Assembly (NCBI GenBank): GCA_964481195.1
Contig: CAYZTB010000002.1
Location: 66,214 to 130,213, forward strand
Length of the DNA: 64,000 nucleotides
Direction: 5' to 3'
Source of the DNA: an uncultured Bacteroidia bacterium
Lineage (GTDB): Bacteria > Bacteroidota > Bacteroidia > Palsa-948
This document shows, piece after piece, positions 4,451 through 64,000 of the stretch (position 1 is the first letter of the stretch; the number at the start of each line of letters is the position of its first letter). Position numbers and translations under genes: made by a program. The notes under the pieces are model-generated. The model ran no database searches, was not told the origin of the DNA, and saw nothing but the letters and a program-made list of their open reading frames with translations.

Positions 4451-5935
4451 ATGTTAAGGCAAACGTTCCAACAAAAGCTACTGCAGAAGTTATCTCCTGC
4501 ACAGATTCAGCTCATGAAGCTGCTGCAGTTGCCTATTACTTCGTTGGAGCAGCGCATTAAAGAGGAAATGGAAATTAACCCTGCTTTAGAGGATAATACG
4601 GAAGAGGATTTTGAAGAAAAAGAAGAGAACGAAACCAATGATGAGCAATTGGAAGAACGCGAGGAGAAATTAGAAGGAGCCGATAACGAAGACGCAGCAA
4701 AAGAAGAGTTTTCGCCTGAAGATTATTTTGATGATGATGATGACATTGCAAGTTATAAGCTACAGGTAAATAACAAAGGCAAAGACAATGACGACCGAGA
4801 TATGCCGATGGTATCTTCAGTAAGTTTTCAGGAAAATCTATCAGGTCAGCTTCAAAACCTTGAGCTTACAGACCATGAAAAAGTTTTGGCCGAATATATA
4901 TTAGGAAGCTTTGATGAAGATGGATACATCCGCAGAGAGCTTTCATCTATAGTAGATGATATAGCTTTTTCTCAAAACGTAACTACCACACAAGTGGAAA
5001 TAGAAAACGTATTAAAACTTATACAGGACGAATTTGACCCAGCAGGTATAGGCGCAAAAGATCTTCAGGAATGTTTACGACTTCAGTTGGATAGAAAAAA
5101 ATGGACAGAAGCCAGAGGATTAGCTCTTCAAATAGTGAACGATCAAATGGAGGAGTTTTCTAAAAAGCACTATAGTAAAATAGCCAAGCACTTTAATATG
5201 TCCGAAGAGCAGCTCAAGCCTGCCATTGATGAAATTCTAAAATTAAATCCTCGTCCGGGGGGGTCAACAAAAGACAATCAACGTTCCATGTTGGTTATTA
5301 CGCCTGATTTTATTATTAATAACAACAGTGGTGTATTGGAATTATCCTTGAACTCGAGAAATGCCCCAGACCTACATGTAAGCAGAGTATACCAGCAAAT
5401 GCTTAATGAATACGCTCAACGAAAAGATAAAACAGGGCAGGAAGCAGTGCAGTTTGTTCGCCAGAAAATAGAAGGCGCTAAATCCTTTATTAATAACATA
5501 AAGGAAAGGCAGAATACACTCTACGGAATAATGCATAATATAATGGAATACCAAAAAGAATATTTCCTTACTGGAGACGAACTTTTATTAAAGCCAATGA
5601 TTCTAAAAGACATTTCCGACAGAGTAAAGCTGGATATATCTACTGTTTCTAGAGTAACAAGCACTAAATACGTACAAACAAATTTTGGAACTATACTTCT
5701 AAAGTCGCTTTTCAATGAGGCATTAACTAACGATGAAGGAGAAGATGTTTCCTCTAAAATGGTTAAGAAAATTATCTCCGATAGCATTGAAGCCGAGAAT
5801 AAGAAGAAACCGCTTACAGACGATGCACTTACCAAAATCCTAAACACCCAAGGTTATAATATTGCCCGCAGAACAGTAGCTAAATACAGAGAGATGCTCG
5901 ATATCCCTGTTGCTCGTATGAGGAAAAAGCTTTAA
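4451..5935 (+). CDS. rpoN: RNA polymerase sigma-54 factor.
   Basis: N-terminal region I Q/L-rich MLRQTFQQKLLQKLSPAQIQLMKLLQLP, an acidic linker, and the C-terminal RpoN box ARRTVAKYREMLDIPVARMRKK. Confidence 0.9.
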   Translation: MLRQTFQQKLLQKLSPAQIQLMKLLQLPITSLEQRIKEEMEINPALEDNTEEDFEEKEENETNDEQLEEREEKLEGADNEDAAKEEFSPEDYFDDDDDIASYKLQVNNKGKDNDDRDMPMVSSVSFQENLSGQLQNLELTDHEKVLAEYILGSFDEDGYIRRELSSIVDDIAFSQNVTTTQVEIENVLKLIQDEFDPAGIGAKDLQECLRLQLDRKKWTEARGLALQIVNDQMEEFSKKHYSKIAKHFNMSEEQLKPAIDEILKLNPRPGGSTKDNQRSMLVITPDFIINNNSGVLELSLNSRNAPDLHVSRVYQQMLNEYAQRKDKTGQEAVQFVRQKIEGAKSFINNIKERQNTLYGIMHNIMEYQKEYFLTGDELLLKPMILKDISDRVKLDISTVSRVTSTKYVQTNFGTILLKSLFNEALTNDEGEDVSSKMVKKIISDSIEAENKKKPLTDDALTKILNTQGYNIARRTVAKYREMLDIPVARMRKKL

Positions 5936-22136: not shown

Positions 22137-23123
22137 TTATTTCTGCGGCATTCCAAGCCCATACTCTTTTTTATTTTTTTGTTTGCGCATTGTTTTCCGT
22201 TCTTTTTTCGAAGGGCTAAATTTTCCGGTCTCATCTCCGCTTGACTGACTCATTTGCTTTTCCTCTTTTGAGCTGCGCTTGAAAAACTTCTTTTTTCCTT
22301 TGGTTTTATGTTTTTTTGTTTTGCCCTTTGCAGCGTTAGAAGAAGCATTCTTTTTTAATTTAACACGTGTTGCAAATGCATCATTTCCTCCAGCCTTAGA
22401 TTTTTTTAGTTTTCGCTCAGATCTTTTTTTAACTTTTTTCCCCTGTGCTTTATCGCCATAATCCATCGTGTAATCGTTACTAACTGTAAAGCCACCATCG
22501 CTTACATCTTTCCCTTTTACTCTTTTGTTTTTCTTTCCTTTTACTCTTTTTCCTTTTGCTCGATCACCATATTGTTTTGATTTTGAATTGGTAGCAAAAG
22601 CATCCGATGAGCCATCACTTTTAGTTTTATTTTTTACACGCTTGCTTCTTTTGCCTCTTGCTTTATCACCGTATTGTTTAGATTTTGAGTTGGTAGCAAA
22701 TGCATCCGATGAATTATCTCCTTTATCCTTGTTTTTTACACGCTTTGTTCTTTTCCCTTTGGATTTTTCTCCATACTGTTTGGATTTTCTTTTTGAAGCA
22801 AATGCATCGGAAGAGTTATCGCTTTGTATTTTATTCTTCTCCTTTTTTACTCTTTTGCCTTTTGATTTATCTCCGTAACTTTTAGATTTAGTTTTTGCAG
22901 AGAAGCCATCACTCGTCTTGCCTGATTTTTTTTGACGTGGTGCTTTAAAACTTTCTTTTTGCTTAGCCTCCTTACGCTTACTTTTCTTTCTTCCAAAAAA
23001 ACCACCTTCTGTATTAGTTTTATGTTTAGCAGGTTTATCGGCAGCAGGCTCCTGACCCCAAACATTTATGGAGGAGAGAATAAATAGAAATAATATAAAT
23101 AGAGACTGTATCCTTACCGGCAT
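22137..23123 (-). CDS. Secreted Lys-rich tandem-repeat protein of unknown function.
   Basis: Signal peptide MPVRIQSLFILFLFILSSINVWG. It has 4–5 tandem ~34-aa repeats SDAFATNSKSKQYGDKAKGKRVKRVKNKTKSDGS (~102-nt period at the DNA level) and very high K/R content. Confidence 0.55.
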   Translation of the reverse strand: MPVRIQSLFILFLFILSSINVWGQEPAADKPAKHKTNTEGGFFGRKKSKRKEAKQKESFKAPRQKKSGKTSDGFSAKTKSKSYGDKSKGKRVKKEKNKIQSDNSSDAFASKRKSKQYGEKSKGKRTKRVKNKDKGDNSSDAFATNSKSKQYGDKARGKRSKRVKNKTKSDGSSDAFATNSKSKQYGDRAKGKRVKGKKNKRVKGKDVSDGGFTVSNDYTMDYGDKAQGKKVKKRSERKLKKSKAGGNDAFATRVKLKKNASSNAAKGKTKKHKTKGKKKFFKRSSKEEKQMSQSSGDETGKFSPSKKERKTMRKQKNKKEYGLGMPQK

Positions 23124-33902: not shown

Positions 33903-35945
33903 ATGATTAACGCAGATTCTCTCATAAAATTCAATAAGAAAAAATATTCTGATGATATTTTACTTGGGCTTTACAAAGCGCTATTAAAACCTCGACTGAT
34001 AGAGGAAAAGATGCTGATTTTGCTTAGGCAGGGAAGGATTACTAAATGGTTTTCCGGCATTGGACAAGAAGCTAGTTCAGTAGGTGCAGCCATGGCGCTG
34101 GATAAGGACGAATATATTTTGCCTATGCACCGTAACCTGGGCACGTTTACAGTTCGAGGAATTCCACTTGAAAAACTATTTGCTCAGTTTCAAGGAAAAA
34201 AATCCGGATTTACAAAAGGGCGTGACCGCAGTTTCCATTTTGGAACGCAGGACTATAAGATTGTCGGCATGATTTCTCACCTAGGTCCACAAATGGGTGT
34301 TGCTGACGGGATTGCTTTAAGTCATTTATTGAAGAAAGAAAAAAAAGTTACGCTTGTTTATACCGGAGATGGAGGAGCATCGGAAGGAGATTTCCATGAG
34401 AGTATAAACGTAGCAGCAGTATGGAATTTGCCGGTGATTTTTGCCATTGAAAATAATGGATACGGGTTATCAACCCCATCTTCAGAACAATTTAAGTGTA
34501 AACAATTTATTGATAAAGCTATTGGTTATGGAATAGAGGCGCATCAGATAGACGGAAACAATGTGTTGGAAGTGTATGACACAATTCGCATTCTTTCAGA
34601 CTCCATCAGAAAAAATCCTAGACCTATTCTATTGGAGTGCATCACTTTCCGTATGCGTGGACACGAAGAGGCAAGCGGCACAAAATACATTGACCCAAAA
34701 CTTTTTGAAGAATGGGGAAAGAAAGACCCAATACTGAATTACGAGAAATTTTTGTTGGAAGAAAATATCCTTACTGAAGAAATAATTTCAGAATACAAAG
34801 CGGAAATAAAAAAAGAAATTGAAAAAGGAATTGAAGTTGCATTTGGTGAGGAGAATATTGTTGCTAATACAGAAGAAGAAGTTAGGGATTTGTATGCAAG
34901 CCCCTCTTCCGTCTCCCCCAAAGGGGGAAAAACCAACACCACGCTACACTCTCCCCTTGAGGGCGAGAAGGAGAGGGGTAGTAAGTCAATGCGCCTTATC
35001 GATTCCATCTCTGATGGACTACGTTTAGCAATGAGAAAACATGAAAATTTAGTTTTAATGGGACAGGACATTGCAGATTATGGAGGAGTATTTAAAATTA
35101 CGGATGGCTTTGTAAAAGAATTTGGAAAAGAAAGAGTGCGTAACACTCCACTTTGCGAGAGCGCAATTTTAGGCGCAGGGTTAGGTCTTTCAATCAACGG
35201 TATGAAGGCCATGGTGGAAATGCAGTTTGCCGATTTTGTGAGCGAAGGCATGACGCAGATTTGTAATAACCTAGCAAAATCACATTGGCGCTGGGGTCAA
35301 AATGCCGATGTGGTGGTGCGCATGCCAACGGGTGCAGGATCAGCAGCCGGACCTTTTCATTCGCAGAGTAACGAAGCATGGTTTTTTCATATTCCCGGAT
35401 TAAAAATTGTGTATCCCGCATTTCCGTTGGATGCTAAGGGATTGTTGCTCTCAGCCTTTGAAGATCCCAATCCTGTGATGTTTTTTGAGCATAAAATGTT
35501 GTACCGAGGAATGAGCCAAGAAGTGCCGGAGGATTATTTTACCATTCCGATTGGCAAAGCAAAAATTTTAAAAGAGGGAAACAATTGCACCATTATTACC
35601 TATGGAATGGGCGTGCATTGGGCTTTGGAAATAATAGAAAGAAATAAACTAACTGATGTAGAGCTGGTTGATTTACGCTCGCTAGCACCGTTGGATACTG
35701 AAACTATTTTTGAAAGTGCAAAGAAGACCGGTAAAGTAATTATTCTGCACGAAGATACTTTGACTGGCGGAATAGGAGGAGAAATATCGGCTTTAATTAC
35801 TGAAAACTGTTTTAACAGCCTAGATGCTCCTGTGATGCGTGAAGGCTCTTTAGATACTCCTGTTCCATTTACGGAAACTTTAGAAAAAAACTTTTTACCT
35901 AAAGAAAGGTTTGAGAAAAAACTTTTGCAATTGCTGGAGTACTAA
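33903..35945 (+). CDS. Fused alpha-ketoacid dehydrogenase E1 component alpha/beta (BCKDH/PDH-type).
   Basis: The N-terminal half is E1-alpha (TPP-binding GDG…N). The C-terminal half starts MRLIDSISDGLRLAMRKHENLVLMGQDIADYGGVF (E1-beta). A single 680-aa polypeptide. Confidence 0.85.
   Translation: MINADSLIKFNKKKYSDDILLGLYKALLKPRLIEEKMLILLRQGRITKWFSGIGQEASSVGAAMALDKDEYILPMHRNLGTFTVRGIPLEKLFAQFQGKKSGFTKGRDRSFHFGTQDYKIVGMISHLGPQMGVADGIALSHLLKKEKKVTLVYTGDGGASEGDFHESINVAAVWNLPVIFAIENNGYGLSTPSSEQFKCKQFIDKAIGYGIEAHQIDGNNVLEVYDTIRILSDSIRKNPRPILLECITFRMRGHEEASGTKYIDPKLFEEWGKKDPILNYEKFLLEENILTEEIISEYKAEIKKEIEKGIEVAFGEENIVANTEEEVRDLYASPSSVSPKGGKTNTTLHSPLEGEKERGSKSMRLIDSISDGLRLAMRKHENLVLMGQDIADYGGVFKITDGFVKEFGKERVRNTPLCESAILGAGLGLSINGMKAMVEMQFADFVSEGMTQICNNLAKSHWRWGQNADVVVRMPTGAGSAAGPFHSQSNEAWFFHIPGLKIVYPAFPLDAKGLLLSAFEDPNPVMFFEHKMLYRGMSQEVPEDYFTIPIGKAKILKEGNNCTIITYGMGVHWALEIIERNKLTDVELVDLRSLAPLDTETIFESAKKTGKVIILHEDTLTGGIGGEISALITENCFNSLDAPVMREGSLDTPVPFTETLEKNFLPKERFEKKLLQLLEY
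34899..34980. repeat. GC-rich palindromic mini-element (copy A), in frame in the E1 alpha–beta linker.
   Basis: cccctcttccgtctcccccaaagggggaaaaaccaacaccacgctacactctccccttgagggcgagaaggagagggg forms two hairpins (TCCCCC/GGGGGA and CTCTCC/GGAGAG). It is a sharp GC spike in AT-rich surroundings. It encodes SPSSVSPKGGKTNTTLHSPLEGEKERG. Confidence 0.6.
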
Positions 35946-38880: not shown

Positions 38881-41800
38881 TTATCTAAGTATCGTAATAG
38901 GACCCGTTATTGGATCGGGCTGCATTACAGACTTCAAATTAATAACGTAATAATATGTTCCTACTGGCAACTCCTTGCCATTGTACTTAGCATTCCATTT
39001 ATTGTTGGGGTAATCGGTAGTGCTAAACAATACTTCGCCCCATCTGTTGTAAACTTCTACTAATGCTCCAGGAAAAGCTTCAATATTTGGAATTTCCCAT
39101 ATATCATTTATTCCATCACCGTTTGGCGAAAGTCCATCATTTGGTTTTACAATTCGGACAATAGTAATCGTTACAAAATCGACCGAGGTACATCCGTTTA
39201 CATCTGTAACTAATAGTGTGTAAGTTGTGGTAGTGGTTGGATTAGCTGCTGGGTTTGCAATTGTAGTAGAGCTAAGTCCAGCTGAAGGAGACCATAAATA
39301 ATTACCACTTCCGCTACCATTAAGTACTACAGTACCTGTGGTCAGTATTGTTACATCTGAACCTGCATTAGCAACTGGACCTGTATTCACTGTCACAAAT
39401 ACTGAATCAGTATCAGAACAAATTCCGTTAGAAACAATTAATGCATACGTTGATGAAACGGCAGGTGAAACGGAAGTGCAAATGACTGTATTTGTTAATG
39501 TCCACGTAGGCAGTAAATACCAGTTATATGTTGCGCCATTTAAACTATTTGTACCACAAAGTAGAACGCTGCTTCCTGCACAAAGTGCGGTATCGTTACC
39601 AGCAGCTGAAACAGGCGGAGGCAACACAGTTACTGAAACGGAATCAGTATCCGTACAAGTGCCATTGAATCCAATAATGCCATATGAAGTAGTTCCTACA
39701 GGAGGTGATACGGAAATACATGAGCCGGTAGAAATAGGAGACCAAGCGGGTAATTGATACCACATATATCCATTGGCTCCAGCAGCGCAAATAGACGCGC
39801 TTGTGCCGGCACAAATTGTTGTATTGCTCACAACCAATATAGGGTAGTTGTTTACTATTACAGCTACCGTATCAGTATCAGAACAAATGCCGTTAGTAGC
39901 AATTAAAGCATAATTGTTTATCCCAGCAAAAGGAGATACAGAAATAGACCCCGTTGCTCCTAGCGATGTCCAAGCAGGAAGCTGGTACCAACCTAAGGTG
40001 ATTGCATTTACGCTAGAGCTGGTAAGAGTTGCTGTTCCACCTAAACAGAAAGTAGTGTCAGCACCTGCATTTGCAATAACAGTTGTTATCACTCCAATCG
40101 ACATGGAGTATGTTGCAGTACAAGCATTAGCATCTGTAATTGTAACAGAATATATTCCTGCACAAAGCCCAGACACATCTTGTGTTGTTTGCCCGCCTGG
40201 AACCCATGTGTATGAATATGGAGTAGTACCACCAGTTGGAGTAATGTCAATTAATCCATTGCAAGTATTGTTGCAACTAGCATTTGTACTTACAAAAGTT
40301 GAAGTTAATATTGCAGGATTTGTAAGCGTAATTGTATTTGAACCCAAACAATTATTTGCATCACTTAATTGTAAGGAGTATGTGCCAGAACATAAGCCAG
40401 TAACGGAAGTGGTTGTTTGTCCACCTGGCATCCACAAATAGGTGTAAGGTGCTGTGCCGCCCGTAGGTGCTGCAGAAATAATTCCATTACATGCGTTGTT
40501 GCAAAGTGGGTTTGTTCCGGTAATATTTAACGCTAAAGCTGCAGGTTGTGAAATTGAAATTGTATTTGTATGCGTACACCCTACTGCATCTATAACCGAT
40601 ATGGTATAATTACCAGCACATAAACCCGTTGCAGTTGAAGTTGATTGTCCACCTGTCCATGTGTAAGTGTATGGTGATGAGCCGCCTATCATTGACACCG
40701 ATGCTGTTCCATCGCATGCAGCATTACAAGAGTTATTTGTAGAGGTTATTGTAGAAGTAAGTACTGTATTTTGACCTATGGAAATTGTAGTTGTTAAAGA
40801 GCAGTTATTTGCGTCAGAAAGAGTTAAAGTATAGTTGCCTGCACATTGTGCGGAAATAGACGAAGTTGTAGCGCCTCCCGGTAACCAGCTGTAAGTATAT
40901 GCTCCAGTTCCGCCAGTAGCAGCAGTTGTTATACCGCCATCGCAAATTCCAAAGCAAGTTGCATTAGTTGCTACTGCATTGGGTACCAGTTGGGCGGGGC
41001 CAATTATGTTTATGCTTTTAATTGTAGTGCAACCGTTAATATCAGTCACATGCGCAAAATATTGGTTAGGACATAAACCCGAAACACTTTGCGTAGTTTG
41101 TGAACCTGCAGGGAACGTCCAAGCATAAACCCAAGGAGGACCATTGCCAGTCGAAGAGACTATAGTTCCAGTTCCGTCACATGCACCAAAACATGTTACG
41201 CTAGTGCTGCTAACGGTTACAAATGGTCCTGTACTGTTGCTAACGGCATTCGTGTCAAGGCTAATACAACCATTGGCATCCATCACAGTGTCAATATAAA
41301 CTCCAGCACATAATCCGGTTATAGCAGCAGTAGTAGCTCCTGTTCCCCAAAAGAAAGAGTATGGACTAGTACCACCATTTCCCGCAACCGTAATACTGCC
41401 GTTACATACTAAACAAGTTGCAGCAGATATAGAAGAAGATTGTGTAAGTATTGGTGGTGAAGTAATGGTTATTGCTTGAGACGCGGAACAATTATTTGCA
41501 TCTGTAACTACCAATGTGTAAGTGCCAGCACATAGACCAGTTGTTATTGCCGAAGTGCCTCCATTACTCCACTGAAATGTATAGGTGCCCGTTCCTCCTA
41601 ACGGAGAAGAAGTGGCAGTACCATCACAAGTATAATTACATGTAGTTTGAGTAAATGTGATATTTGCTTGTATTAAACTTTGGGAAGAAATTGTAAATGG
41701 AGTTGGAGAAGTACAAGCATTGGCATCCGATACGGTTAGTGTATAGTTGCCAGCACAAAGTCCAGTAACTGCAGAAGTTGTGTATCCGCCCGGATTCCAC

Positions 41801-44800
41801 AAGTAGGTGTAACTACCAGTACCGCCACTTAAATTTACGGAAGCCGATCCATCACATCCACCAAAACAGCTTGCGTTGGTTGTTGTAAGTGTAGGAGAAA
41901 TTGCAGTAGGCTGAGTGATGGAAACTGTTTGAGAAGAAGTACATCCATTAGCATCTGTAACAGTTCCAAAATAATTACCTACGCATAATGCAGATATTGT
42001 AGAAGTGGTTTGTCCACCTGCCAACCAAGAATAACTATAAGCGGTTGAACCGCCTGATGCAGATAATGTTGCAGTTCCATTACATATGGAGTTACAAGTA
42101 ATGTTTGATGATGCTACAGTAGTAGTTAAAGCAACAGGTTGAGTAATTGATACAGTAGAAGTAGCAGTACACCCTTTTTGATCTGTTACAGTCAATGAGT
42201 AGTTTCCTGGAGATAATCCAACGATAGTAGGGAATGAAGATCCATTACTCCATGAATAAGTATATGGTGTAGTGCCGCCCGATACTGTTGCGTTGGCACT
42301 GCCATTTCCAGACCCGTTACAAGTTACGTTTGTTGCAGTTATAGAAACACTTAAGAGCGCAGGTTGGGTTACAGTTAAAGCTAAAGTATCATCACACCCA
42401 GAAGCGTCTGCTAAAATAACGGAGTATGTTCCGGCAGTAAGTCCGCTAATACAAGAAGTAGACTGACCACTAGACCAAGTAAATGTGTAAGGAGTGTTGC
42501 CGCCAGCAGGCGATAAACATATGCTGCCATTATTCCCTGAATTACATGAAACATTTGAAATAGTGGGGTTAGCGACTAACTGTGGTGGATTAGAAAGTAC
42601 AACAGTTGTGAAAGTTGGACAAGGCACATTGTCATCTACTTGAAGAATGTATGTTCCAGCGCACAGACCAGTAGCAGCAGATGTAGTTTGTCCACTAGGA
42701 GTCCATAAATAAGTGAAAGGTGAATTACCTGCAGCAGAAACTGCAATTGCTCCATCACAACCCGCGTTACAAAGTGGATCTAATGCTGAAATAACTGTAA
42801 GTGTTGGACCAGTAAGTGAGCCTAATGCTATAGGGAAAACAGCTGTACATCCCGATGCATCAGCAATGGTAACTGTATAGATTCCTGCAACAAGTCCAGT
42901 AATACAAGAAGTAGTTTCTAGACCTGGAGCCCAAGAATATGTGTAAGGCGATACGCCACCGGATGCACTAGCACATATTGCACCATTATTGCTACCGCAA
43001 GTTGTAAGTGTTGTAGAAGGATTATTGCTGATGGTTGGAATTATTCCAACAAGAACAGTATTGGTAGAGGTGCAATTATTTGCATCGGTTATTAATACAG
43101 AATAATTTCCAGCACAAAGGCCTGTTGCTGTAGTTGTATTTTGAGAAGGGAATCCAGACCAGGCATAGGTTAAGGTTCCTGTTCCTCCAGATGTAGCCAC
43201 GGTTGCTGTACCATTACAAATGCCGCATGATGCAGCAGTACTGCTAATTGTGTTTGTAAGAGGAGTTGGCGAGGAAAATGAAACCGTTTTAGTAGCTGTG
43301 CATCCCGAATTATCAGTAACCGTTACAGAATAAACGCCTGCACATAATCCAGTTGCAGTAGCGTTTGTTTGTCCGCCTGTCCAAGAATATGTATACGGAT
43401 TTGCTCCACCTGACGGTGTAGCTGTTGCGGATGCATCACATGAGCCAGCGCAAGAAACAGAGGGGCCAGAGGATGACAGGGTAACATTTATTTTAGAAGT
43501 AACATTTACAGTAAGTGAGTTTGTGCAATTATTTGCATCAGTAATTGTTACAGAATAAACACCAACGCATAGTCCAGTTGCAGTAGAAGTTGTTTGTCCG
43601 CCCGGAGACCAAGAGTAACTATAGGGTGTAGTCCCACCTGTTGAAATAATACTTGCGCTACCTGTGCAAAGATTACAACTGGAAGTTGAAGTAGAGATAA
43701 AAGATAAAAGAGCACTTGGCTGAGTGATATTTAAATTATTTATATTGGAACAACCTTTAGAATCAGTAACCATTACACCAATAGCCCCTTGACACAATCC
43801 AGTAATTGTTTGTGTTGTAATACCACCACCCCATAAGTAAGTATAAGGTGGAGTGCCTCCTGTAGGCGCAGAAGTAGCAGAACCATCGCATGCACCGGAG
43901 CAGGATACATTATTAATTACAGAAGCATTTGCTGCTACAGCTGAAGGCTGAGTAAGCGTAACAGTTTTTACTACAAAGCATCCTTTGCTATCTGTTACAG
44001 TTATTGTATAAAATCCTGCACATTGTGAAGTAATTGCAGATGTAGTTTGTCCGCCAGGTAACCAAGCATAGGTGTAAGCTCCTGTTCCTCCAGAAGCAGT
44101 TATTGTAACAGAACCAGTACAACTTCCAAAACAAGGTGGGTTAGTAGAAGAAAGAGTAGACGTTAAAACAGTGGGTGCAGTAAATGTAACAGATGTAGTT
44201 GCGGTGCATCCGTTTGCATCAGTAGCTGTTAAAGAATACGCTCCTGCACAAAGTCCAGTTATTGAAGCAGTAGTAGCGCCAGTAGACCAAGCATACGAAT
44301 AGGTTGGAGTTCCGCCATTAAGATTTATAAGTATTGACCCGTCACAATCGCCATTACATTTTAATGGATTGGGTGTGGCTGATCCGATGGAAGCAGTAAA
44401 TAAATTTGGTTGCGTAACATTGATAGTTCCAGTAGCGGTACATCCTGCGGAACCGGTTATAAGAACCGAATAACTTCCAGCACTTAATCCCGTAGCAGTA
44501 GAAGTAGTTTGTCCGCCAGGAGTCCATAAATAAGTGTACGGAGATACTCCTCCTGTTGGCGATGATGTAGCGCTGCCATTAGATAAGCCATTACAAGTAA
44601 CTGATGTGCTACTTAAGTTTGGAAGAATTGGAATTGGAGGAGATACTGTAATAGTTGCGGTAGCTAAACAGTTTTTTGAATCTCTAACGGTAATTGTGTA
44701 ATTGTTAGGACATAATCCAGTAGCTGTTGATGTTGTTTTTCCTCCTGGCGCCCATAAATAGGTGTATGGAGCAGTACCTCCAGATACTGTTGCAGTTGCA

Positions 44801-46209
44801 GTACCATCACAAGAGCCAGCACAAGTTTCATTAGTTTTTGTAGGAGTAATTGCAAGAACTGCTGGTTGAGTGAGAGTTATGGAACTTACTTTAGTACAAC
44901 CGTTTTGATCTGAAATAGTTACAGAATACGTATTGTTACAAAGATTAGAAACCGATGAAGAAGTAGCACCTCCTGGAGTCCACAAATAAGTGTAAGGAGA
45001 AACACCTCCGGCAGCATTTGCATTTGCTGTTCCATCGCATTGATTAAAACAATTAATATTATTTCCAGTTGGAATGGATGTTATAGCAGAAGGTTGAGTT
45101 AAGGTAACCGTAGCAGTGGTAACACAATTATTAGCATCTCTAAGAGTAAGGGTATAGCTTCCCGCACACATTCCTGTAACTGCAGATGAAGTATATCCTC
45201 CAGGTGCCCAAGCATAGGTATATGCACCCATTCCTCCAGATGCAGTAGCGGTTACCGATCCGGTGCAAACACTATTGCAAAGTAAATTAGATCCTGTAAC
45301 CGTTACCGTTAACAAAGCTGGTTGAGAAATAGTAGTTATATAGGTGGTGATACAAATTTTTGTATCGCGAATCGTACATGTATAACTCCCCGGACATAAA
45401 TTAGATATTGAAGAAGTCGTAGCTCCGCCAGGACTCCAAGAGTAAGTATATGGAACATTGCCGCCTGTAGGTGCTACAGATGCAGTGCCGTTACATAACC
45501 CAAAGCAAGTAATTGAAGTAGTTGTCCCATTCGATACAAGTGGAGCAGGTTGCCCAATGTTTACATTTCTAACAGCCGTACATCCATTGGCATCTGTTAT
45601 TGTAACAACATAAAGTTGAGCGCAAAGTCCGGTAGCTAATGTTGTTGTTTGAATAGGAGCAGTATTCCATGAATAAGTGTAGGGCGAAGTTCCTCCAGTG
45701 GGAGTTGCAGTTGCTGAACCATCACATAATCCAAAACAAGAACTTACAGGGGCGGGCGGTGTAATATTTACAATAAGTGAGGCAGGATTTACAAGAGCAA
45801 TAGAGCCACTGCAATAACCACCAATAGTAGCATCCCAAACCTGAATTAGGTAAGTATTGCCTACTAAACCAGTTATAGATGCAGTTGTTGCAGAGCCACC
45901 TGGCGGAGACCATAAATAAGTGTAGGGTGTGGTCCCACCACTTACTGAAACTGAGGCAGATCCATTTGCAGCCCCATTACATAAAGGATCTGTGCCACTA
46001 ATAACTAGAGTTAATGTTCCACAAGTAACTGTTGTAGTAGCAGCAAGTGGAGTTGGATCTGCAACAAATTCTTTTTGAGCAAAGACACCTACTACACTAC
46101 AAGAAAAAAACAGTAAGAGTAAAAATCTTTTCAAACTGGAAATTTTATTTTGTATCATCTGTTTACGAACAGAATGCAAAGATGTTACATTTTTTATAAA
46201 AAAACGCAT
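38881..46209 (-). CDS. SprB-repeat giant cell-surface adhesin with a gliding-motility-associated (T9SS type B) C-terminal domain.
   Basis: ~26 SprB repeats (C.G.CDGSA…GGT.PYTY.W.PGG), then 4 repeats of a second type (…TFCLGGTATL…YQLPAW…), then a C-terminal …PNDGLSPNGDGINDIWEIPNIEAFPGALVEVYNRWGEVLF… (CHU_C / type-B CTD). The likely start is MIQNK at 46158. Confidence 0.85.
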   Translation of the reverse strand: MRFFIKNVTSLHSVRKQMIQNKISSLKRFLLLLFFSCSVVGVFAQKEFVADPTPLAATTTVTCGTLTLVISGTDPLCNGAANGSASVSVSGGTTPYTYLWSPPGGSATTASITGLVGNTYLIQVWDATIGGYCSGSIALVNPASLIVNITPPAPVSSCFGLCDGSATATPTGGTSPYTYSWNTAPIQTTTLATGLCAQLYVVTITDANGCTAVRNVNIGQPAPLVSNGTTTSITCFGLCNGTASVAPTGGNVPYTYSWSPGGATTSSISNLCPGSYTCTIRDTKICITTYITTISQPALLTVTVTGSNLLCNSVCTGSVTATASGGMGAYTYAWAPGGYTSSAVTGMCAGSYTLTLRDANNCVTTATVTLTQPSAITSIPTGNNINCFNQCDGTANANAAGGVSPYTYLWTPGGATSSSVSNLCNNTYSVTISDQNGCTKVSSITLTQPAVLAITPTKTNETCAGSCDGTATATVSGGTAPYTYLWAPGGKTTSTATGLCPNNYTITVRDSKNCLATATITVSPPIPILPNLSSTSVTCNGLSNGSATSSPTGGVSPYTYLWTPGGQTTSTATGLSAGSYSVLITGSAGCTATGTINVTQPNLFTASIGSATPNPLKCNGDCDGSILINLNGGTPTYSYAWSTGATTASITGLCAGAYSLTATDANGCTATTSVTFTAPTVLTSTLSSTNPPCFGSCTGSVTITASGGTGAYTYAWLPGGQTTSAITSQCAGFYTITVTDSKGCFVVKTVTLTQPSAVAANASVINNVSCSGACDGSATSAPTGGTPPYTYLWGGGITTQTITGLCQGAIGVMVTDSKGCSNINNLNITQPSALLSFISTSTSSCNLCTGSASIISTGGTTPYSYSWSPGGQTTSTATGLCVGVYSVTITDANNCTNSLTVNVTSKINVTLSSSGPSVSCAGSCDASATATPSGGANPYTYSWTGGQTNATATGLCAGVYSVTVTDNSGCTATKTVSFSSPTPLTNTISSTAASCGICNGTATVATSGGTGTLTYAWSGFPSQNTTTATGLCAGNYSVLITDANNCTSTNTVLVGIIPTISNNPSTTLTTCGSNNGAICASASGGVSPYTYSWAPGLETTSCITGLVAGIYTVTIADASGCTAVFPIALGSLTGPTLTVISALDPLCNAGCDGAIAVSAAGNSPFTYLWTPSGQTTSAATGLCAGTYILQVDDNVPCPTFTTVVLSNPPQLVANPTISNVSCNSGNNGSICLSPAGGNTPYTFTWSSGQSTSCISGLTAGTYSVILADASGCDDTLALTVTQPALLSVSITATNVTCNGSGNGSANATVSGGTTPYTYSWSNGSSFPTIVGLSPGNYSLTVTDQKGCTATSTVSITQPVALTTTVASSNITCNSICNGTATLSASGGSTAYSYSWLAGGQTTSTISALCVGNYFGTVTDANGCTSSQTVSITQPTAISPTLTTTNASCFGGCDGSASVNLSGGTGSYTYLWNPGGYTTSAVTGLCAGNYTLTVSDANACTSPTPFTISSQSLIQANITFTQTTCNYTCDGTATSSPLGGTGTYTFQWSNGGTSAITTGLCAGTYTLVVTDANNCSASQAITITSPPILTQSSSISAATCLVCNGSITVAGNGGTSPYSFFWGTGATTAAITGLCAGVYIDTVMDANGCISLDTNAVSNSTGPFVTVSSTSVTCFGACDGTGTIVSSTGNGPPWVYAWTFPAGSQTTQSVSGLCPNQYFAHVTDINGCTTIKSINIIGPAQLVPNAVATNATCFGICDGGITTAATGGTGAYTYSWLPGGATTSSISAQCAGNYTLTLSDANNCSLTTTISIGQNTVLTSTITSTNNSCNAACDGTASVSMIGGSSPYTYTWTGGQSTSTATGLCAGNYTISVIDAVGCTHTNTISISQPAALALNITGTNPLCNNACNGIISAAPTGGTAPYTYLWMPGGQTTTSVTGLCSGTYSLQLSDANNCLGSNTITLTNPAILTSTFVSTNASCNNTCNGLIDITPTGGTTPYSYTWVPGGQTTQDVSGLCAGIYSVTITDANACTATYSMSIGVITTVIANAGADTTFCLGGTATLTSSSVNAITLGWYQLPAWTSLGATGSISVSPFAGINNYALIATNGICSDTDTVAVIVNNYPILVVSNTTICAGTSASICAAGANGYMWYQLPAWSPISTGSCISVSPPVGTTSYGIIGFNGTCTDTDSVSVTVLPPPVSAAGNDTALCAGSSVLLCGTNSLNGATYNWYLLPTWTLTNTVICTSVSPAVSSTYALIVSNGICSDTDSVFVTVNTGPVANAGSDVTILTTGTVVLNGSGSGNYLWSPSAGLSSTTIANPAANPTTTTTYTLLVTDVNGCTSVDFVTITIVRIVKPNDGLSPNGDGINDIWEIPNIEAFPGALVEVYNRWGEVLFSTTDYPNNKWNAKYNGKELPVGTYYYVINLKSVMQPDPITGPITILR

Positions 46210-49694: not shown

Positions 49695-49747
49695 AGTTAA
49701 TAATAAATCCCCTCTTTGATTTAAAGAGGGGATTTTGGTTTAGCTAA

Positions 49748-61963: not shown

Positions 61964-63211
61964 TTGCATAGACCGAAATACTTGATAGTGAACAATTTCA
62001 AAAGCATAGCCGTTACGCATAAACATTTCGATATCAGCGATATTGGGAAATTCCATATTGATGAAAAAGAATGGAATGACCGTTTATCTACATTGAAAAA
62101 AAATAATGATATTGATGAGTTAATGTTTTTGTCTACCTGCAATCGTGTAGAGTTTCTACTGAACACCAACCGTACGTTAGACAAAGAGTTTTTAAATAAA
62201 TTTATTCAATCGGTTTACCCAGAACTAAAAACCGAAGATCTTGAAAAAACATCTGCAACAGCAAAAACTTTTGAAGGCGATGAGGCATTGAAGCACTTGT
62301 TTTGTGTTGCATCATCTCTTGATTCATTGGTTGTTGGGGAGCGTGAAATCATCACTCAAGTTCGAAACTCTTACGACTTATGCAAGAAGCTAACTCTTAC
62401 AGGTGATTTGCTTCGCTTAGTAATTCAAAAAACAATTGAATGCGCTAAGCAGGTGTACACGCATACTAATATTTCAAAAAATCCTGTTTCGGTCGTTTCC
62501 TTAGCATACAGAAAACTTAAAGAGCTAAATGTTCCAATTGATGCTAAAATATTAATTGTTGGTTCTGGCGTAACAAACTCAACCATGGCAAAATATTTAA
62601 AGAAGCACGGTTTTAAAAATTTTGCTGTCTTTAATAGAACGCTTTCTAATGCAGAAAAACTTGCAGTTGATTTAAAAGGTGCAGCGCATTCTCTTCCTGA
62701 ATTGATAAACTACAAAAATGGATTTGACGTCATAGTTACATGTACCGGCTCTTCAGAGCCCGTTATTACAAAAACTATTTATTCATCCCTAGTAGGAAAC
62801 GATACTTCTAAAAAAATAGTAATTGACTTAGCAGTGCCCAATGATTTAGATGATGAAATATTGAAGAACTACGATGTAAATCTTATTGCAGTAAATAATT
62901 TACAAGAGATCGCAAAAAAGAATCTTTCTGAAAGAGAAAAAGAACTATCGGCCTGTGAAAAAATTATTGATTTAAACATAGTAGAATTCAGAAAAGAACT
63001 AAAAGAAAGAAAAGTGGAGCTTGCAATGAGTGCCGTTCCAAAAAAAGTAAGAGAGATTCGAGAAATTGCCGTGAATGAAGTTTTTGCTCGCGACATAGAA
63101 AAACTAGACGCAGGCTCAAAAGAAACGCTAGACAAAATAATTAACTATCTAGAAAAAAAATACATAAGCGTGCCCATGAAAATGGCAAGGGAGATTATGA
63201 TGGAGAAGTAA
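61964..63211 (+). CDS. hemA: Glutamyl-tRNA reductase.
   Basis: LSTCNRVEF catalytic Cys motif and an NADPH Rossmann GSGVTNSTMAKYL. Confidence 0.9.
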   Translation: MHRPKYLIVNNFKSIAVTHKHFDISDIGKFHIDEKEWNDRLSTLKKNNDIDELMFLSTCNRVEFLLNTNRTLDKEFLNKFIQSVYPELKTEDLEKTSATAKTFEGDEALKHLFCVASSLDSLVVGEREIITQVRNSYDLCKKLTLTGDLLRLVIQKTIECAKQVYTHTNISKNPVSVVSLAYRKLKELNVPIDAKILIVGSGVTNSTMAKYLKKHGFKNFAVFNRTLSNAEKLAVDLKGAAHSLPELINYKNGFDVIVTCTGSSEPVITKTIYSSLVGNDTSKKIVIDLAVPNDLDDEILKNYDVNLIAVNNLQEIAKKNLSEREKELSACEKIIDLNIVEFRKELKERKVELAMSAVPKKVREIREIAVNEVFARDIEKLDAGSKETLDKIINYLEKKYISVPMKMAREIMMEK

Positions 63212-63262
63212 CACCCCCTCCCGAGCTTCGCTCCCTGCCTCCGGCAGTCCCGAAGGGGGAGA
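63212..63262. repeat. GC-rich palindromic mini-element (copy B) in the hemA–hemC spacer.
   Basis: caccccctcccgagcttcgctccctgcctccggcagtcccgaagggggagag shares the gcctccggca…agggg(g)agag core with copy C. Confidence 0.55.
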
Positions 63263-63272
63263 GATTATTCCA

Positions 63273-64000
63273 ATGGATTCAAAGAAAAAAAAATCAGTAA
63301 AGTTTTCGTCCTCCGCCTCCGGCACTCTCCCTTTAGGGGAGAGCGGGGAGAAGGGTGGTAAAATTACAATCGGAAGTAGAGGTAGCGACCTAGCCCTTTG
63401 GCAGGCAAATTTTGTTTTACGAGAACTAAAAAAAATAAATATTCGAGCAGAAATAAAAATTATTAAAACTCAGGGTGATATTGCTCAAAATTTAAGTTGG
63501 GACAAATTAGAGGGCAAAGGTTTCTTTACCAAAGAGATTGAAGATGCGTTATTGAAAAAGGAAATTGACTTAGCGGTACACTCCCACAAAGATTTGCCAA
63601 CAGATCCTGTGCCGGGATTAATTATTGCAGCAGTTTCGGAAAGAGAAGACCCAAGCGAACTTTTGCTAATCAATAAAAATGCAGTAGATAAAAATGAATT
63701 ATTCTCATTGAAGAAAGGAGCATTGGTTGGCACTTCTTCGGCTCGCAGAAAATCACAAATGTTGGCTTGGCGACCGGATGTTAAATTGCAGGATTTGCGT
63801 GGGAATGTGCCTACAAGAATAAAAAAACTAAGGGATACAAATTATGACGCCATATTACTTGCCAATGCAGGAGTAACTCGTTTAAAAATCAATTTGAGTG
63901 AATTTCATTCCGAAATATTAGACCCAAACGAATTTATCCCCGCACCGGCACAAGGAGTTTTGGCATTGCAAATAAGGAACCCCTCTCCAGCTCTCCCCAA
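63273..64000 (+). CDS. hemC: Hydroxymethylbilane synthase (porphobilinogen deaminase); partial, runs off the window end.
   Basis: …KITIGSRGSDLALWQANFV…AVHSHKDLPT… matches the HemC N-terminal domain. The only in-frame ATG gives a 29-aa GC-encoded N-terminal extension. Confidence 0.85.
   Translation, partial: MDSKKKKSVKFSSSASGTLPLGESGEKGGKITIGSRGSDLALWQANFVLRELKKINIRAEIKIIKTQGDIAQNLSWDKLEGKGFFTKEIEDALLKKEIDLAVHSHKDLPTDPVPGLIIAAVSEREDPSELLLINKNAVDKNELFSLKKGALVGTSSARRKSQMLAWRPDVKLQDLRGNVPTRIKKLRDTNYDAILLANAGVTRLKINLSEFHSEILDPNEFIPAPAQGVLALQIRNPSPALP
63308..63358. repeat. GC-rich palindromic mini-element (copy C), in frame in the 5′ end of hemC.
   Basis: cctccgcctccggcactctccctttaggggagagcggggagaagggtgg forms the hairpin CTCTCCC-TTTAG-GGGAGAG. 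It encodes SSASGTLPLGESGEKGG. Confidence 0.55.
63978..64000. repeat. Probable further copy (D) of the GC-rich element, in frame in hemC, truncated by the window edge.
   Basis: aacccctctccagctctcccc carries the cccctctcc / ctctcccc cores. It encodes NPSPALP within the HemC domain. Confidence 0.35.

Follow-up and report, generated by a model that had tools for sequence, protein, structure and literature searches.

Here we describe six short GC-rich elements, copies A to F, from a 64,000-nucleotide (nt) stretch of DNA of an uncultured Bacteroidia bacterium (contig CAYZTB010000002.1; hereafter the window) and the sequence just downstream of it; five of the six lie in and between the heme biosynthesis genes hemA, hemC-hemD (fused, hemCD) and hemB. 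We put at about three in four the probability that these sequences belong to a family of small non-coding repeats of the BoxC/PIT/intrastrand triplex type, dispersed in this lineage, whose copies inside genes are read through by the ribosome. A REP-like repeat family is the most likely description, and the case would be a new instance of selfish repeat DNA that owes its survival to translation. On this reading, the hemA-hemCD-hemB operon would have been colonised at least five times—by B between genes, by C and D in HemC (at the N-terminus and in a loop, respectively), by E in HemD and by F in HemB—and a further event would have placed A in the alpha-beta linker of a fused E1 dehydrogenase. 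The original prediction, made from the letters of the window, concerned copies B, C and D around hemA and hemC; the BoxC/PIT/triplex-motif (TM) layout and the reach of the cluster into hemD and hemB go beyond it.

The window is AT-rich (37.6% GC), and copies B, C and D stand at 61–73% GC. A general repeat finder run on the window was swamped by a 2442-amino-acid (aa) repeat protein that left the elements invisible; they were sought with custom scans for GC islands, hairpins and triplexes. The GC-island scan (40-nt stretches of at least 65% GC) picked out nine places in the 64 kb, three of which are B (63202-63268), C (63305-63359) and 34939-34978, taken as copy A. Source-genome counts cover 66.5 kb, that is, the window plus downstream sequence from assemblies of the same organism; this extension shows copy D in full and follows the cluster into hemD, with copy E, and hemB, with copy F (Table 1).

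What the copies have in common is a layout, in which a C-rich block is followed across a loop by its G-rich complement and then, after another 1–5 nt of loop, by a further G-rich block that is the mirror image of the preceding one; six of the seven units fit this arrangement. The G/C-rich class II intrastrand triplex motif is defined in the same terms, with 3–6 nt in the first loop, Watson-Crick pairing between the first two blocks, and mirror symmetry of the third block to the second through G.G, A.A or T.A. Our own triplex finder—modelled on the published ITxF rules, with a stem of at least 7 and at most one mismatch per interaction—returned seven matches in the source sequence (A1, A2, C, D on both strands, E and F) versus 0 in 30 shuffles. 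Strict C/G hairpins tell a similar story, with 5 observed versus 0.02 expected from the shuffles.

Table 1. Positions, orientation and three-block units of copies A to F, followed by the heme genes of the window. Coordinates are those of the window unless a contig is named.
Feature	Position	Strand	Unit or content	Basis
Copy A, inverted pair	34897..34983			GC island, fold, triplex finder
Unit A1 of copy A	34899-34930	minus	TTTCCCCC TTT GGGGGAGA CGGA AGAGGGGC	triplex finder
Unit A2 of copy A	34948-34977	plus	CTCTCCC CTTGA GGGCGAG AAG GAGAGGG	triplex finder
Copy B, composite (B-type), 51 nt	63212..63262	same orientation as C		sequence; 49/51-identical copy in L209
Copy C	63279..63359; GC-rich core 63306-63359; triplex-type unit 63324-63355	plus	CTCTCCCT TTA GGGGAGAG CGGG GAGAAGGG	alignment, triplex finder
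Copy D	63975..64007 (cut by window end at 64000, 7 nt beyond)	both strands score, best minus	CTCTCTCC CTTTT GGGGAGAG CTG GAGAGGGG (minus)	sequence of L001 and L003-L006; triplex finder
Copy E	L005 5082-5129	minus	CTCCTCCC TTT GGGAGGGG TCG GGGGTGGG; HemD half of HemC-HemD fusion; peptide FGPPPTPPKGRRAWRVG	
Copy F	L005 6049-6090	plus	CCCCTCTCC CTTC GGGGAGGGG CAG GGGGTGGGG; hemB, directly after zinc-site motif DHGHCGLL; peptide TPLSLRGGAGGGVE	
hemA (glutamyl-tRNA reductase)	61964..63211	plus		ORF list; Pfam GlutR_N and Shikimate_DH on the same gene in L003-L006
hemC-hemD fusion, 5' part	63273..64000, past window end	plus	full product P0121, 567 aa	L005 3871-5574

The same layout recurs outside the source genome. 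A set of 80 loci (1.33 Mb) from metagenome-assembled genomes (MAGs) of related Bacteroidia, all centred on hemCD, gave 29 triplex-finder matches versus 0 in shuffled sequence, the typical unit being CCCCTCTCC TTT GGAGAGGGG CTG GGGGTGAGG. Most of these elements are intergenic; some are in frame, in the inter-domain linker of PolA (locus L135), in IspG (L201) and in HemB (L151). A closer relative (L002) carries a 45-aa insert with two hairpins at another HemC position, one of which shares 23 nt with copy E, and a further relative (L129) has an element in the spacer between hemCD and hemB. The HemB element of L151 (2116-2148), from the distant MAG LacPavin_0818_WC50_MAG_42_11 (HemCD identity 54%), stands right after HGHCG—the same site as copy F—with a different sequence (CCCCTCTCC TTT GGAGAGGGG CTG GGGGAGAGG) and the opposite orientation. 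This independent arrival strengthens the original suggestion of a target, or permissive-site, preference, and the HemB site may be either a recurrent target or merely a permissive loop.

Copies B and C form a subfamily of their own. They share the stretch TTCG..GCCTCCGGCA(G/C)TC(T)CCC-loop-GGGG(G)AGAG, in the same orientation and 78 nt apart, so that both the flank and the G-block of the motif that the original prediction had drawn from them were recovered. A scan of a metagenome collection that does not hold the source contigs, using a pattern specific to B and C, gave six stretches, five of them chance matches in high-GC contigs and one informative: a different Bacteroidetes contig (L209, 43% GC) carries a copy 49/51 identical to B, in frame in a gene for an M20 amidohydrolase (peptidase) and translated on the strand opposite to that of B, as ...SSPPLGLPEAGSEAREGADS.... 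Two B-type copies (953-1010 and 1485-1545) in fact lie in frame in this one gene, 530 nt apart and in the same orientation, and the second, diverged copy shows a compensatory change in the inner stem (CTGCC/GGCAG to CTACC/GGTAG). These comparisons define the B-type as a discrete, roughly 51-nt element whose internal hairpins are conserved, and B and C are local paralogues, because C shares the inner part of B. Such same-subfamily neighbours, in the hem cluster and in the M20 gene, bear out the original idea of local proliferation. Searching a protein index with B translated in all six frames gave 43 word candidates and none at E ≤10; in-frame peptides of the B-type are either rare or invisible to that protein index.

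Before the family is accepted, one must ask whether the copies are unrelated low-complexity GC-rich patches or assembly artefacts. Some pairs of copies, such as B and F, have low pairwise identity, and assemblies do break at E and F. The partial HemC of the window, used as a query, retrieved an identical 410-aa protein (P0001) and its cluster mate P0121, the 567-aa HemC-HemD fusion; P0121 is encoded on four contigs (L003-L006), whose sources are a pair of JGI metagenomes and a pair of SRA runs, and P0001 is encoded on ENA contig L001. Metagenomes of the source habitats are JGI 3300020213, JGI 3300015360, SRR6448211/2 and ERZ505514. L003 and L004 stop exactly at the first base of F (extended coordinate 65456), and L001 is chimeric from position 2051, about 30 nt before E—breaks that are expected assembler behaviour at repeats. 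Against patches or artefacts also stand the shuffles, which yield no triplex match for either the 66.5-kb source sequence or the relatives, the near-identical copies in different genomes, and the sequence itself, which is identical in five independent assemblies (99.97–100% identity to the window, with no insertion polymorphism of the elements among the five). We give this reading next to no credence; the shuffles, the cross-genome identity and the five concordant assemblies rule out chance or artefact, and the 49/51 copy, the 23-nt identity between E and L002, and the absence of the layout from shuffles mark a repeat family, as originally proposed, and not low complexity. CRISPR, integron attC, group II intron and riboswitch were also considered and dropped: there is no array, there are no R'/R'' sites, both orientations occur inside open reading frames (ORFs), and Rfam covariance models gave no match at E ≤1 in L005, which holds B to F, or in L002.

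The positions of the copies relative to genes are well defined. Copy B begins, as first described, on the base after the hemA stop (TAA, 63209-63211) and occupies 51 of the 61 bases ahead of ATG 63273; its C-block and G-block flank two small internal hairpins, and it is the sole intergenic, untranslated copy among the hem cluster. Copies A, C, D, E and F each keep the reading frame of an ORF in which Pfam-supported domains lie to either side of the element. A stop at 63198 interrupts the hemC frame, and ATG 63273 is the sole ATG, GTG or TTG before the conserved KITIGSRGS, which upholds the view that copy C sits in the only ATG-initiated hemC frame and gives HemC a 29-aa N-terminal extension (MDSKKKKSVKFSSSASGTLPLGESGEKGG). 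The extent first assigned to C (63308-63358) holds for its GC-rich core; the full in-frame insertion, after codon 2–5, goes beyond it, with ambiguous boundaries (75–81 nt) and an A-rich part (SKKKKSVKF) before the core.

For comparison we aligned 14 HemC relatives and 12 HemCD ORFs of related MAGs and searched GTDB species representatives by tblastn with HemC (80 matches, best identity 62–67%). In all, about 90 related HemC/HemCD proteins lack both the N-terminal extension and the D insert; the extension is absent from all of the aligned relatives, and 79/80 tblastn matches begin at query residues 25–36, with one distant match at residue 3. In an AlphaFold2 model of P0001 (mean predicted local distance difference test, pLDDT, 74), residues 1–26 are disordered, with pLDDT <50. 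The aligned relatives all start M-x-x-(K/R)-I-I-I-G-S-R-G-S, among them P0013, whose N-terminus reads MDRKIIIGSRGS. Because the MD...KITIGSRGS of the window matches the MD-R-K-I-I-I-G start of P0013, ATG 63273 looks like the ancestral hemC start with C inserted just behind it; gene callers on five independent assemblies chose the same codon.

The alternative, raised with the original prediction, is that hemC initiates downstream at a non-canonical codon and that C is untranslated—for instance at ATT 63363, with the purine-rich tail of C as a Shine-Dalgarno-like leader. The sequence GGGGAGAAGGGTGG lies 5–18 nt upstream of this ATT, and the proteins of relatives begin 2–3 residues ahead of that point; however, no in-frame ATG, GTG or TTG exists from 63276 to the conserved GSRGS motif, and MD plus K-I-T-I-G agrees with the start of P0013. 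ATT start codons are very rare, and Bacteroidota do not generally depend on Shine-Dalgarno pairing. We consider such a start highly improbable, and it would affect the status of C alone, leaving D, E, F and A unchanged.

Copy D, given as a probable copy in the original prediction, is indeed an in-frame insert—33 nt, AACCCCTCTCCAGCTCTCCCCAAAAGGGAGAGA, adding the 11 residues NPSPALPKRER after LQIR of HemC—although it is nearer in sequence to A1 than to B and C. The insert is absent from all 14 HemC and 12 HemCD relatives aligned, and in the AlphaFold2 model it forms a loop between strand 229–235 and helix 243–257. Relative to related proteins, copy E puts about 48 nt in place of about 42 native nt of hemD (net +2 aa), and copy F puts 42 nt in place of the 12 nt that encode HDDY in hemB (net +10 aa). 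Copy A falls in the alpha-beta linker of the fused E1 dehydrogenase (ORF 33903-35945), between Pfam E1_dh (residues 28–313) and Transket_pyr (residues 367–535), where it encodes ASPSSVSPKGGKTNTTLHSPLEGEKERG; the linker of the closest homolog, P0122, is shorter by about 16 aa. The predicted fold of copy A reaches -40.7 kcal/mol (z -3.9), with the outer blocks of A1 and A2 paired.

How such DNA could persist inside conserved genes may be explained by three features. Firstly, the composition of pyrimidine and purine blocks would leave most frames stop-free: 4–6/6 frames are open in the elements versus 1.8–3.6 in random segments of equal length, and B is open in all six. Secondly, survival would be restricted to events with a net change of 3n, and at each intragenic copy the host ORF stays open and the net length change is a multiple of three. 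Thirdly, the survivors would be those located at the end of a protein, between its domains or in loops on its surface. Read-through is the economical interpretation, since there is otherwise no reason for all of these copies to be in frame and stop-free; the predicted read-through peptides include MDSKKKK..., ...LQIRNPSPALPKRER... and ...HCGLLTPLSLRGGAGGGVEVHN.... We infer that the inserts are translated and near-neutral, and the earlier statement that the element tolerates translation stands in this inferential sense, as long conserved ORFs stay open across C, D, E, F and A.

It is also conceivable that the inserts are selected as protein, serving as flexible linkers rich in Gly/Pro/Ser or as new loops on the surface that change the properties of the enzymes, with the DNA similarity a by-product. 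All intragenic copies encode peptides rich in Pro/Ser/Leu and Gly/Glu/Arg, in a linker, a terminus or loops, and two distant MAGs have an insert at one and the same place in HemB. Yet the peptides differ completely among copies and orientations (TLPLGESGEKGG, NPSPALPKRER, GPPPTPPKGRRAW, TPLSLRGGAGGGV and ASPPAPLQRRGEE), B is untranslated here while its near-identical L209 counterpart is translated on the other strand, and no relative examined has inserts at these sites, save the independent HemB element of L151. Since the peptides are alike only in composition and the DNA layout is what the copies have in common, conservation is at the nucleic-acid level, and selection as protein is in our view a long shot.

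As for the origin of new copies within a repeat family, our best guess is that a nearby or homologous unit is copied when structure-prone sites undergo repair or replication restart. The same-subfamily neighbours (B with C, and the two M20 copies) and the cluster itself suggest short-range copying; and because E and F replaced 42 and 12 native nt without a clear target-site duplication, break repair or template switching using another copy would fit better than cut-and-paste transposition.

The closest known relatives are the BoxC/PIT (potential intrastrand triplex)/TM_ECO elements of E. coli and other Proteobacteria (Hoyne and Maher; Holder et al. 2015, PMC4666352). Like them, the Bacteroidia elements have the three-block layout in about 30–37 nt, are present in several copies, occur in either orientation and sometimes as inverted pairs (A1/A2 here), and have no known transposase; the blocks are almost alike, reading CCCTCTCCC..GGGAGAGGG TTA GGGTGAGGG in E. 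coli and CCCCTCTCC..GGAGAGGGG CTG GGGGTGAGG in Bacteroidia. The TM_ECO pattern is 5'-CCCTCNCCC N3-6 GGGNGAGGG N3 GGGNGAGGG-3', with 23 copies in MG1655, some as inverted pairs, and 3610 copies in 262 proteobacterial genomes, and related G/C-rich motifs are abundant in cyanobacteria (PMC4666352). A BoxC-like consensus matched E. coli genomes at 18 places each (median), and the 10 best places listed overlap no annotated feature. The Bacteroidia blocks are the TM_ECO words moved by one base, and membership of the class rests on layout and close resemblance, not on identity, because the exact TM_ECO consensus is unmatched. The present elements differ further in their AT-rich Bacteroidota host and in the composite subtype B with its internal hairpins.

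In their behaviour, by contrast, the elements resemble the Rickettsia palindromic elements (RPEs; Ogata et al. 2000), which, according to a later review (PMC2229807), are 105–146 bp long, sit in frame in conserved proteins of an AT-rich genome and also between genes, and are tolerated where the added peptide lies on the protein surface; the same review cites experimental read-through for one RPE-bearing Rickettsia enzyme. Both families are found in frame in conserved proteins, at positions that are on the surface or otherwise permissive. What sets the families apart is size, composition and host—33–87 nt, GC-rich and of the triplex-motif type in Bacteroidota, as against the Rickettsia-specific RPEs. 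REP and REPIN sequences offer a second comparison, as imperfect GC-rich palindromes of 20–40 nt in singlets, dimers or clusters; some GTAG- or CGTC-tagged REPs lie inside ORFs in linkers or loops, DNA polymerase I included, and in repair and replication genes (PMC3733652; PMC3116915), a likeness extended by the PolA-linker copy of the relative L135. Unlike REPs, our units carry no consistent tag (3/7 oriented units, at inconsistent positions: GTAG/CTAC in A2, CGTC in D on the minus strand and its complement GACG in A1 on the minus strand), and they have a mirror third block, which REPs lack.

Two more distant parallels concern structure and setting. The G-quadruplex/hairpin/triplex repeats of Methanomicrobiaceae combine two G-blocks with a complementary C-block and switch between hairpin, triplex and G-quadruplex (G4) in vitro, although their C-block lies 3' of the G-blocks, a mirror arrangement, and they are intergenic (PMC8044849). 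Yeast mitochondrial GC clusters are short GC-rich palindromes spread in very AT-rich DNA and found in frame in the protein gene var1; they differ in belonging to a eukaryotic organelle and to other sequence classes, and in having no mirror G-block.

Several points weigh against assigning the copies to a BoxC/PIT-type repeat family. The exact TM_ECO expression has no match in the 66.5 kb of source sequence or the 1.33 Mb of relatives, and B fails the three-block test. BoxC/TM_ECO elements are reported as always intergenic, whereas 5/6 loci here lie in ORFs, and triplex or G4 folding in vivo is unsupported even for E. coli (PMC4666352). The census of six loci, five of them clustered, is limited to 66.5 kb, and the clustering statistic given below is post hoc. 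No RAYT/TnpA-REP or other mobilising enzyme turned up, although no systematic search was made and the window ORFs were not scanned for Y1_Tnp. Finally, target-site duplication, which goes with terminal inverted repeats in miniature inverted-repeat transposable elements, is not clear at D, E or F in a codon-level comparison of filled and empty sites, in which the relatives (54–81% aa identity) are too diverged for exact boundaries.

The concentration of copies in one operon raises a functional alternative, namely that the cluster is a selected cis-regulatory device—a hairpin, triplex or G-quadruplex in the hemA-hemCD-hemB transcript or DNA—that coordinates three enzymes through RNA polymerase or ribosome pausing, mRNA stability or heme sensing. 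Five of the six loci fall inside 2.28 kb (p ~4e-5, a post hoc figure that assumes uniform placement), B sits precisely in the spacer that separates the hemA stop from the hemC start, and the sole two canonical G4 motifs in the 66.5 kb are E and F, the latter on the hemB sense strand. The hem operons of relatives also have elements, in HemB (L151), the hemCD-hemB spacer (L129) and HemC (L002); however, those loci were all chosen around hemCD, and 2/18 elements in about 20% of the sequence is no enrichment. Mixed orientation (C and F plus, D and E minus) leaves no single conserved RNA structure, and the family occurs as well in E1 dehydrogenase, PolA, IspG, M20 peptidase and intergenic DNA. PIT elements, which are linked to local genome instability, showed no promoter or terminator activity in E. 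coli (PMC4666352), and promoter and terminator scans found no promoter-like or terminator-like site at B. C and D, absent from all of the roughly 90 relatives, are recent and not conserved regulators. A coordinating device of this kind is accordingly an unlikely explanation.

A related idea, less likely still, is that the hem pile-up is non-neutral and that the elements, above all F with its sense-strand G4 against a hairpin, act as heme-responsive or transcription/translation-pacing switches; G-quadruplexes bind hemin. Were it true, the operon would show repeat-derived feedback control of tetrapyrrole synthesis, and the recurrence at HemB would mean selection or targeting, not mere tolerance.

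With a dispersed, translated repeat family as the preferred explanation, the sequence pattern may reach far beyond this lineage. In IMG/VR viral contigs, the G-block pattern of the E/F type (GGGAGGGGNNGGGGGTGGG) occurs in at least 120 stretches; among the matches listed, 116/133 have a complementary CCCCTC(C/T)CC arm upstream, often with a longer co-varying distal stem. As a negative control, the G-block pattern of the other subtype found an unrelated motif, with the C-arm in 2/133, and the full pattern of the A/C/D subtype had 0 matches in viral contigs. ORF-context statistics on these contigs were uninformative, spurious long open frames being common at high GC. TM_ECO, for its part, was not found on phages or plasmids (Holder et al. 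2015, PMC4666352).

Two observations from the same viral collection are recorded here in their own right. A hairpin followed by GGGAGGGG NN GGGGGTGGG is very common (L007-L126), in contigs of 42–74% GC and often several times per contig. An unrelated conserved motif, GGGGGGAGAGAGGGAGAGGGGGG, occurs in many contigs of 40–50% GC (L213-L292) in similar context (..GTG(C/T)T..N..GGGGGG..).

Some features of the heme genes and of the rest of the window complete the description. The candidate starts of hemA are TTG 61964, TTG 61982 and GTG 61988. The fusion of hemC and hemD (567 aa) in the source organism is also found in all of about 80 related Bacteroidia MAGs, in the order hemA-hemCD-hemB; in P0121, Pfam places Porphobil_deam at residues 31–237 and HEM4 at residues 365–561. 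Small lineage-specific inserts that are not GC-rich elements occur as well, such as SERH in the source HemC-HemD linker (L005 ~4885-4900) and AQRAPNG in the HemD of L135.

Elsewhere in the window, the 2442-aa ORF that dominates all repeat searches (38881-46209, minus) consists of repeats of about 228 nt (76 aa) in many diverged copies, and four tandem copies of a 102-nt unit, 61–100% identical to the first, T-rich and strongly AT-skewed, lie at 22523-22930 inside ORF 22137-23123 (minus). A perfect 13-bp hairpin at 49705-49735 (AAATCCCCTCTTT GATTT AAAGAGGGGATTT), downstream of convergent ORFs at about 49.3–49.7 kb, is probably an ordinary bidirectional terminator; its core, CCCCTCT/AGAGGGG, is similar to the element blocks.

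Taken together, the elements are a Bacteroidota member of the BoxC/PIT/triplex-motif class that behaves like the Rickettsia elements, in frame in essential genes, and repeats that have been called strictly intergenic in E. coli have Bacteroidota relatives inside essential genes. Four points deserve attention: the piling-up of elements within one operon, the recurrence at a single HemB site, junctions at which native sequence was replaced, and how very widely the motif occurs. In practical terms, such elements break metagenome assemblies (as at E and F), inflate protein lengths, mimic N-terminal extensions and, because they are open in most frames, seed spurious ORFs. HemC, HemD, HemB, PolA, IspG, E1 dehydrogenase and M20 peptidase now provide a set of filled and empty sites that can be used to ask where proteins tolerate 10–27 extra residues and how repeats spread without a known transposase. 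The abundance of the pattern in IMG/VR contigs over a wide GC range suggests that the family may be far more widespread than the literature searched would indicate.

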